Below are positions 54,068 through 55,079 of a stretch of 64,000 nt of DNA, piece after piece. A program made the translations under genes and the position numbers. The stretch lies in the NCBI RefSeq assembly GCF_054482595.1, contig NZ_CM137008.1; one strand, 5' to 3'. The notes under the pieces are model-generated. The model made no database searches and was not told where the DNA came from. It saw only the letters and a list, made by a program, of their open reading frames with translations. Numbering within the stretch: position 1 is the stretch's first letter; each line of letters opens with the position of its first letter.

Positions 54068-54212
54068 TTAAGATTATTCTGCTGGCGGGTCGATTTATTT
54101 ACGTAAATCGGTCCGCTTTCTTTTTATATATTCTTAAAAATAATTTAGCTGCTTTTCTTATTAAATAATCTCCCTACAATCGCTGCATTAATTAAATGCA
54201 GAGGGAACGGTT

Positions 54213-54944
54213 ATGAAAAAATGGAAAGTACGTAGCGCGTTGGTGGCATTAATCGTGCTGCTGGCCGGTTGTTCCAGTAATGCGCAGTATAATAGCAGTG
54301 CATCGGGCAATGTCGGCACCGCCTGGGGTGGGGATGTGCACTCAACGGTTCAGGGCGTATCTGCTGAGCGAGCCTGGCGCGATCCGGCGGAGATGATCGT
54401 TATTAGTTATTCGACTAATGTTCCTTCCGGCTACGACCGCGTTTATAGCATTCGTATTAACGAACTGGAATATGCTATTCGCGATGGTAATTTTAATTCT
54501 CTACCTATTACGCGTGTTTATGATTCATCCAATAATGAACCACGCTATATTGTCCATGCCAGAGTCGGAATGAATTATCAATTATATGTCCGTAATTACA
54601 GTCGTAACACCAACTACGAGATCGTTGCTACGGTTGATGGCCTGGATGTGCTGAACGGCAAGCAAGGTTCGCTGAATAACAACGGCTATATTGTGAATGC
54701 CGGAGATTCGTTAGCGATTAAAGGATTCCGCAAAGATAAACATACCGAAGCGGCTTTTCAGTTCGCCAACGTTGCTGATTCCTACGCAGCCAATTCGGCG
54801 CAAGGCGATGTGCGTAATACCGGTGTAATAGGCTTTGCCGCCTTTGAATTACAAGGCCAGGCGCAAAACGCGCTGCCGCCGTGCTCTGGACAAGCCTTTC
54901 CGGCAGATAACAATGGCTATGCGCCGCCACCGTGTCGGAAATAG
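54213..54944 (+). CDS. Predicted lipoprotein of unknown function, located between speA and speB
   Basis: 243-aa ORF with signal peptide and lipobox (ALIVLLAGCSS); RBS-like GAGGGA upstream; followed by a hairpin plus T-run at 55012-55051; GC somewhat below that of the neighbouring genes. Confidence 0.6.
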   Translation: MKKWKVRSALVALIVLLAGCSSNAQYNSSASGNVGTAWGGDVHSTVQGVSAERAWRDPAEMIVISYSTNVPSGYDRVYSIRINELEYAIRDGNFNSLPITRVYDSSNNEPRYIVHARVGMNYQLYVRNYSRNTNYEIVATVDGLDVLNGKQGSLNNNGYIVNAGDSLAIKGFRKDKHTEAAFQFANVADSYAANSAQGDVRNTGVIGFAAFELQGQAQNALPPCSGQAFPADNNGYAPPPCRK

Positions 54945-55011
54945 CAACCTCGCTTGATGCCTCGCCCATTTAAGGCGATAATTAGCACAAACTTGTGTTT
55001 CGCAAATCCAA

Positions 55012-55051
55012 CCCTTCCTCGTCGGGCCTAACGACGCGGAAGGGTTTTTTT
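55012..55051 (+). terminator. Rho-independent terminator after the lipoprotein ORF
   Basis: CCCTTCC-tcgtcgggcctaacgacg-cGGAAGGG followed by TTTTTTT. Confidence 0.65.
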
Positions 55052-55079
55052 ATATCGACTTTGTAATAGGAGTCCATCC

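Follow-up and report, generated by a model that had tools for sequence, protein, structure and literature searches.

In Escherichia coli K-12 the genes for arginine decarboxylase (speA) and agmatinase (speB) lie close together, and the gap between them carries a promoter-like site for speB and a hairpin followed by a T-run. In the O157:H7 strain Sakai another gene, ECs_3813 (NP_311840.1), stands between speB (ECs_3812) and speA (ECs_3814). The stretch of DNA analysed here (64,000 nucleotides of contig NZ_CM137008.1 from RefSeq assembly GCF_054482595.1, referred to below as the window) has the Sakai arrangement: the same gene is found in the same place, with no difference between the window gene and ECs_3813 (WP_000758914.1). 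Its predicted product resembles the outer-membrane lipoproteins sorted by the Lol system in having a signal peptide, a lipobox (LLAG followed by cysteine) with an invariant cysteine, serine at position +2 and a flexible tether, but its mature domain matches none of the characterised families of that kind. MATH/TRAF-like and other eight-stranded beta-sandwich binding modules, as well as the fungal DUF7918, are further members of the set of closest known systems.

An earlier note on this DNA, made from the letters alone, had described the gene as an insertion that splits a compact speA-speB pair. We consider it probable that the interval instead holds an old, independently transcribed accessory lipoprotein gene of an uncharacterised family, and that it is neither a recent insertion nor a working part of the polyamine pathway.

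Presence and absence of the gene in E. coli

The distribution within the species was established by megablast of the 1012-bp speA-speB interval and, reciprocally, of the K-12 junction against 5426 complete E. coli genomes. The full interval is present in 3550 of them, O157:H7 and uropathogenic strains included, with 97.4-100% identity among the full-length matches listed (99.5% in an O157:H7 genome, 100% in strain XH990). Genomes without it match only over the last 77 bp. The K-12-type short junction is intact in 1863 genomes, including K-12 and the B/BL21 derivatives; 1798 of these match it with 99% identity or more, which is consistent with a single origin of the short allele; about a dozen genomes fit neither form. 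The lipoprotein gene is a two-allele presence/absence polymorphism in E. coli, and the allele that bears it is the commoner one (about two thirds).

The K-12 gap of ~0.14 kb given in the earlier note was accurate: in K-12 J53 the gap is 137 bp (speA ends at 3440 and speB starts at 3578 of the J53 stretch), and no gene is annotated within it. The alignment with other genomes that the note proposed as a check gives a split answer, the open reading frame (ORF) being absent from K-12 and present in most E. coli. As a statement about the species, "insertion" does not hold up, since the gene is the majority state (3550 versus 1863 genomes) and occupies the same site in other Escherichia. Nor is the gene novel: it is already in the public annotation of thousands of genomes, of which Sakai is one example, under the RefSeq labels "lipoprotein", "membrane protein" or "hypothetical protein", and it is an ordinary accessory-genome difference. 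In the literature that we searched we found no paper on ECs_3813 or WP_000758914.1; the gene is annotated but unstudied.

Age of the gene and the K-12 short allele

To look beyond E. coli we used the C-terminus of SpeA as a query in a survey of 80 species-representative genomes, a sample that does not contain E. albertii. The gene is at the same site, with 95-96% identity, in all four other Escherichia representatives (a divergent "E. coli" strain, Escherichia sp. E1V33, E. whittamii and Escherichia sp. MOD1-EC7003), and an E. fergusonii protein falls into the same 90% cluster as the window lipoprotein. More distant homologues, with 58-75% amino acid identity, lie between speA and speB in Klebsiella species, Citrobacter freundii, C. 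portucalensis, Citrobacter sp. FP75, Kluyvera georgiana, Phytobacter ursingii and Enterobacter sp. BIGb0383, and the Salmonella enterica homologue sits directly after speA.

Synonymous divergence (dS) from the window within Escherichia is 0.29-0.34 for the lipoprotein gene, 0.21-0.26 for speB and 0.19-0.42 for the 3' half of speA; between genera, dS of the lipoprotein gene is saturated. Values close to those of the flanks within the genus, together with saturation between genera, argue for inheritance along with the flanks and against recent transfer. We see none of the usual signs of a mobile insertion or genomic island: there are no direct repeats flanking the gene, no integrase genes and no tRNA genes; the only "plasmid" records that carry the gene are chromosome-sized or fragmentary and all non-mobilisable; and no close homologue is found in phages, no enterobacterial phage carrying the gene. 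Taken together, its presence in the E. coli majority and in other Escherichia, its flank-like dS and the missing mobility signature lead us to conclude from sequence comparison that the Escherichia ancestor probably already had the gene at this site; the K-12 form would then be derived, by loss or by replacement with a short allele. For the Enterobacteriaceae as a whole we favour ancient presence followed by many losses. The gene would thus have stood between speA and speB in the Escherichia ancestor, probably earlier still within the family, and a single loss or short-allele replacement would have given rise to the K-12/B-strain form found today in roughly one third of the E. coli sequenced.

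The view that the gene was acquired horizontally and interrupted an originally compact pair, which is that of the earlier note, has three observations in its favour: the compact gap of 94-290 bp in K-12 and in most Enterobacteriaceae species representatives, a GC content of the gene (~0.44-0.50) below that of speA and speB (0.54-0.59), and a patchy distribution across genera. It has to accommodate the presence of the gene in every other Escherichia sampled, in E. fergusonii and in 65% of E. coli, a within-genus dS equal to that of the flanks, and the lack of target-site duplications and mobile carriers. Moreover, across the long-form loci the upstream terminator and -10 element described below diverge in step with the gene. 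Any insertion would have to be older than the genus Escherichia, and we regard this explanation as quite improbable.

Several points nonetheless weigh against an ancestral gene lost in K-12. Among the 80 surveyed loci, speB lies within ~1 kb of speA in 65, and only 10 of these have the gene, while 55 have a compact gap of 94-290 bp; most species representatives are therefore short-form, and the K-12 short region has the layout of their compact gaps. For the family as a whole, an early insertion followed by spread within the Enterobacteriaceae is a possible alternative. The comparison of K-12 with the window is not straightforward either. K-12 lacks the lipoprotein gene along with its putative promoter, and the putative speA terminator at 54084-54127 is missing as well; over the final 77 bp upstream of speB the two show 100% identity. 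However, the first 60 bp downstream of speA in K-12, a strongly diverged version of the promoter region, have only ~60% identity with their long-form counterpart (54945-55003), and speB itself differs by 4.6% of nucleotides (K-12, 3578-4498; window, 55080-56000). Both speB genes have the same protein accession (WP_000105566.1), so this difference entails no amino acid change. The diverged 60 bp and the speB difference indicate that something other than a simple recent deletion from the window haplotype gave rise to the K-12 allele: it is either old or came by recombination from an unsampled lineage.

The genes neighbouring speB differ between K-12 and the window by ~0.5-1% of nucleotides, and K-12 speB is nearer to that of Escherichia sp. 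E1V33 (97.0%) than to that of the window. The speB divergence suggests deep haplotypes or recombination at the speA-speB locus. We tried to trace the source lineage of the short allele, and its first 60 bp turned out to be about equally far from every lineage sampled. A search of the gene borders for microhomology or repeats that could have mediated a deletion found none, and the K-12 junction is too diverged for the event to be reconstructed.

Transcription of the interval and the speB leader

The gene order in the window is metK, yqgD, yqgG, yqgB, speA, the 1012-bp interval, speB, loiP and tkt. The interval runs from the end of speA (54067) to the start of speB (55080) and has one long plus-strand ORF, which bears out the report in the earlier note of a 243-residue reading frame with a lipobox in a gap of ~1 kb. 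The features discussed below are the following.

52091-54067, plus strand: speA, biosynthetic arginine decarboxylase, 658 aa (ORF list; RefSeq annotation of the identical stretch in strain XH990)
54084-54127, plus strand: putative intrinsic terminator of speA, with a 15-bp stem, a 4-nt loop and a T-rich tail (terminator scan, RNA fold)
54175-54180, plus strand: putative -10 hexamer TACAAT of the lipoprotein gene (conservation), with a poor -35 and an AT-rich stretch upstream
54183-54201, no strand assigned: perfect 7-bp inverted repeat CTGCATT-AATTA-AATGCAG, between the putative -10 and the ribosome-binding site
54201-54207, plus strand: Shine-Dalgarno-like GAGGGAA, 5 nt 5' of the ATG (sequence reading); its GGG/GGA core is kept in other genera
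54213-54944, plus strand: lipoprotein gene, 243 codons (ORF list; RefSeq "lipoprotein" WP_000758914.1, ECs_3813)
54954-54982, plus strand: promoter-like site TTGATG-N17-GATAAT upstream of speB (promoter scan), common to the window and K-12
55010-55053, plus strand: conserved hairpin and T-run between the speB promoter-like site and the speB start codon (repeat search, RNA fold)
55080-56000, plus strand: speB, agmatinase, 306 aa (ORF list, RefSeq annotation)

The first hairpin (54084-54127) folds as RNA with -17.8 kcal/mol (z = -4.7), and its stem is kept, with base changes, in the long-form loci of Escherichia, Salmonella, Citrobacter, Klebsiella, Kluyvera and Phytobacter; it is confined to the long form, being absent from K-12. 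We read it as the putative speA terminator of that form. Further downstream, the TACAAT hexamer lies ~35 nt before the start codon of the lipoprotein gene, and in an alignment of 13 long-form loci from eight genera its T, A and final T are invariant while the surroundings drift. A simple consensus promoter scan did not call it. We take it as the likely -10 element of a promoter of the gene's own, the activity of which is predicted from this conservation.

The 7-bp palindrome reported in the earlier note is present, letter for letter, at 54183-54201, where it would span the expected transcription start of the lipoprotein gene; its significance is less secure. Dinucleotide shuffling of the 145-nt upstream region yields one or more perfect 7-bp inverted repeats with a loop of 3-8 nt in 11.5% of cases, a marginal figure, and shuffling of the whole speA-speB interval does so in 34%. 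Folded as RNA, the palindrome gives a stem of modest strength (centroid -7.8 kcal/mol, z = -2.2). All four other Escherichia species retain it, with two substitutions that would leave G-U pairing possible; among the 13 aligned long-form loci no other genus has kept it. The element may be an operator or a 5' RNA stem, with weak evidence either way. Compared with ArgR and NsrR sites it has an unfitting half-site spacing, and we make no claim for either regulator. A Rfam scan of 53800-55300 returned a sub-threshold match to Pseudomonas P31, on the strand opposite the speA terminator, which we dismissed.

The second hairpin (55010-55053) is the stronger of the two, with -26.4 kcal/mol (z = -4.8), and is followed by seven T residues. 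The earlier note had assigned it to the lipoprotein gene as a terminator of its own. Hairpin and T-run are indeed there, but they are identical in K-12 and recur in all 68 Enterobacteriaceae loci in which speB follows speA, long and short forms alike, and are thus not specific to the lipoprotein gene. In 66 of the 68 the hairpin is preceded by TTGnnn-N17-GATAAT, which in 65 lies 24-29 nt from the hairpin base (27 nt in the window) and in one lies 151 nt away owing to an inserted repeat. The 42 distinct hairpin sequences have 99.7% of stem cells paired, with compensatory double changes at three pairs, all at the base of the stem; the upper stem and the 7-nt loop are invariant, although synonymous sites of speB are near saturation between these genera. 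A GC-rich stem-loop, a U-run and compensatory changes make this a predicted intrinsic terminator, and the same Rfam scan yielded no family that matches it. Judged by these alignments, it is part of a conserved speB promoter-plus-hairpin module and not a terminator belonging to the lipoprotein gene, whose transcript presumably also stops there. The speB leader could be an attenuator or give rise to a short RNA that controls agmatinase.

Two deviations from this module deserve mention. The displaced site is that of Citrobacter freundii, where ~125 bp (locus ~5800-5920), presumably an enterobacterial repetitive intergenic (ERIC-type) element, are inserted between the speB promoter-like site and the hairpin. 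In two Enterobacter spp. with the shortest gaps (94 and 105 bp) the hairpin is kept and the speB promoter-like site is missing; speB of these two species would therefore depend on read-through from speA.

The lipoprotein gene does not look like a member of a speAB operon: it has a terminator and a putative -10 upstream and a hairpin downstream, and its co-occurrence with the two genes is not obligatory. We infer that it is, in agreement with the earlier note, a separate transcription unit, and it has a predicted terminator on each side. Transcripts of speA would stop at the first hairpin; the lipoprotein gene would be read from its own weak promoter (-10 at 54175-54180) up to the second, inside the speB leader; and speB would keep its own promoter at 54954-54982. 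As for the expectation in the note that the gene uncouples speB from speA read-through, the long form adds a putative speA terminator and ~0.9 kb; speB has its own promoter-like site in both forms, so any uncoupling would be a matter of degree.

The lipoprotein family and its possible function

The N-terminus of the protein reads MKKWKVRSALVALIVLLAG up to the cleavage site and CSSN after it. Residues 1-19 form a signal peptide, basic in its N-region and hydrophobic in its core, which ends in a lipobox of the bacterial lipoprotein pattern ([LVI][ASTVI][GAS]C): LLAG followed by Cys20, encoded at 54270-54272. The mature protein has Ser at +2, a tether of ~14 residues and a beta-rich domain (aa ~34-215), followed by a C-terminal tail with Cys224, Cys241 and a conserved FP motif. 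In E. coli, Asp at +2 is the signal for inner-membrane retention of lipoproteins; the mature C-S-S-N sequence has none, in line with outer-membrane sorting. After export and lipidation on Cys20 the protein should therefore end up in the outer membrane. The precursor would be exported by Sec, Lgt would add diacylglycerol to Cys20, LspA would cleave after LLAG and Lnt would N-acylate the new N-terminus; with Ser instead of Asp at +2, the Lol system would move the lipoprotein to the outer membrane, where a beta-sandwich domain of ~190 residues would hang from the short tether.

The ratio of nonsynonymous to synonymous divergence (dN/dS) is 0.06-0.07 in comparisons with the four other Escherichia species and does not exceed 0.11 in those with other genera, which marks a real gene under purifying selection. 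The family is large, with 2902 clusters at 50% identity that match at E <= 0.001, and its members are found in Alpha-, Beta- and Gammaproteobacteria and in myxobacteria. An alignment of 53 diverse homologues has ten invariant and 27 nearly invariant columns. The lipobox Cys is invariant, as are the GTxWGE motif, R53, Y122, the VDGxDV motif (D142), GFR173, F182 and G204; E136, D145, Y191 and N202 are nearly so.

The statement in the earlier note that the protein has no placeable motif agrees with our searches. Neither the single sequence nor the alignment of all 53 members has a Pfam match even at E <= 10, a profile search of the PDB is empty at E <= 10, and there is no PADLOC or usable PHROGs match; NCBIfam gives only weak matches to ActS, LptM and Lpp, confined to the signal peptide and far below the cut-offs. 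An AlphaFold (AF2) model of the protein is almost wholly beta (pLDDT 90.1, pTM 0.78), and the mature domain (~190 residues) is confidently modelled as a beta-sandwich. Fold comparison against AFDB50 retrieves unnamed relatives only.

That the core (~residues 90-215) can stand as a domain by itself is shown by three variants. In one relative, of 465 aa, the core occurs twice in tandem, and a GTGFGEE strand comes after the core rather than before it. Jumbo rhizobiophages RHph_I1_18, Phosso and Atu_ph07 encode signal-less proteins with the core domain, and in these phage versions a GxGxGxx strand and an NPFPG motif follow the core, a circular permutation relative to the E. coli protein and the order also seen in the tandem relative. 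The signal-less homologues imply that the domain is not intrinsically one of the envelope, a point against our main reading. Within the window gene itself there is a 21-nt direct repeat, 86% identical (54544-54564 and 54685-54705), which encodes RYIVHARV and GYIVNAGD; it may be the trace of an internal strand duplication, or chance.

The strictly conserved polar patch (WGE, E136, VDGxDV, GFR and N202) leads us to guess at a binding or catalytic module of the envelope. With low confidence, we suggest that the domain may bind or act on a conserved envelope component. Going further, one could see in this large unnamed family, with its invariant acidic/basic patch (WGE, E136, VDGxDV, GFR), a new envelope enzyme or ligand-binding activity, perhaps tied to a polyamine or arginine-derived metabolite, since the gene is flanked by speA and speB and one paralogue has a speG-like gene for a neighbour; we hold this to be quite improbable.

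We examined nine neighbourhoods outside the spe locus for partner genes, and only the Comamonadaceae have a recurrent neighbour. In Variovorax, Acidovorax and a related metagenomic genome the homologue lies inside the his operon, between hisD and hisC, and is followed by a secreted protein of ~95 residues with two cysteines that matches Pfam Rap1a (type VI immunity; i-E 3e-05); in Variovorax (one genome) a SUFU-like protein follows as well. Other homologues stand alone beside gal-modF, recO or an aldehyde dehydrogenase gene.

These neighbours are one reason to ask whether the lipoprotein is an orphan periplasmic immunity protein or inhibitor directed against an incoming toxin that attacks the cell wall, for instance a lysozyme-like enzyme or an effector of a type VI system. 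A predicted periplasmic, outer-membrane-anchored location and a patchy distribution would suit such a role, and the protein evolves much faster than its neighbours (dN 0.16-0.36 versus 0.006-0.07 between genera). Yet no effector gene is found in any locus examined, the lipoprotein has no similarity to a known immunity family, and the Rap1a match belongs to the Comamonadaceae neighbour. An immunity function is in our opinion unlikely.

A role in polyamine metabolism, for example in binding agmatine or putrescine at the envelope or as a partner of SpeA, is the other function that the locus brings to mind, and the position between speA and speB is shared by at least six genera. In Trabulsiella guamensis (locus 5594-8498) we find a 40%-identical paralogue between a DUF1161 (ynfD-like) and a UPF0257 (ynfC-like) gene, with an acetyltransferase gene alongside that occupies the speG position; the adjacency is possibly coincidental, and in this genome speA-speB itself has the compact form. 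While this neighbour could be counted for a polyamine role, it is a single post-hoc observation. In the loci examined, homologues outside the Enterobacteriaceae never adjoin polyamine genes; the gene has its own putative promoter and would be insulated by terminators; and K-12, like most species with both speA and speB, does without it (absent from 55 of 65 loci). We consider a polyamine role very improbable, and retain the reading of an old, separately transcribed accessory lipoprotein gene.

For E. coli the main consequence is a caution on K-12 as a reference: its compact speA-speB junction is a minority state and, on our reading, a derived one, and in the majority of natural isolates the site holds an additional lipoprotein gene that looks expressed. 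The protein is one of many conserved outer-membrane lipoproteins without an assigned function. With a large family, no Pfam entry and a confident model without a close solved relative, it makes a reasonable, if not urgent, target for envelope biology. What novelty remains is of two separate kinds: the protein family, which is uncharacterised, and the conserved speB leader. The leader, common to all forms of the locus and a possible attenuator of agmatinase expression, is the most useful by-product of the analysis.

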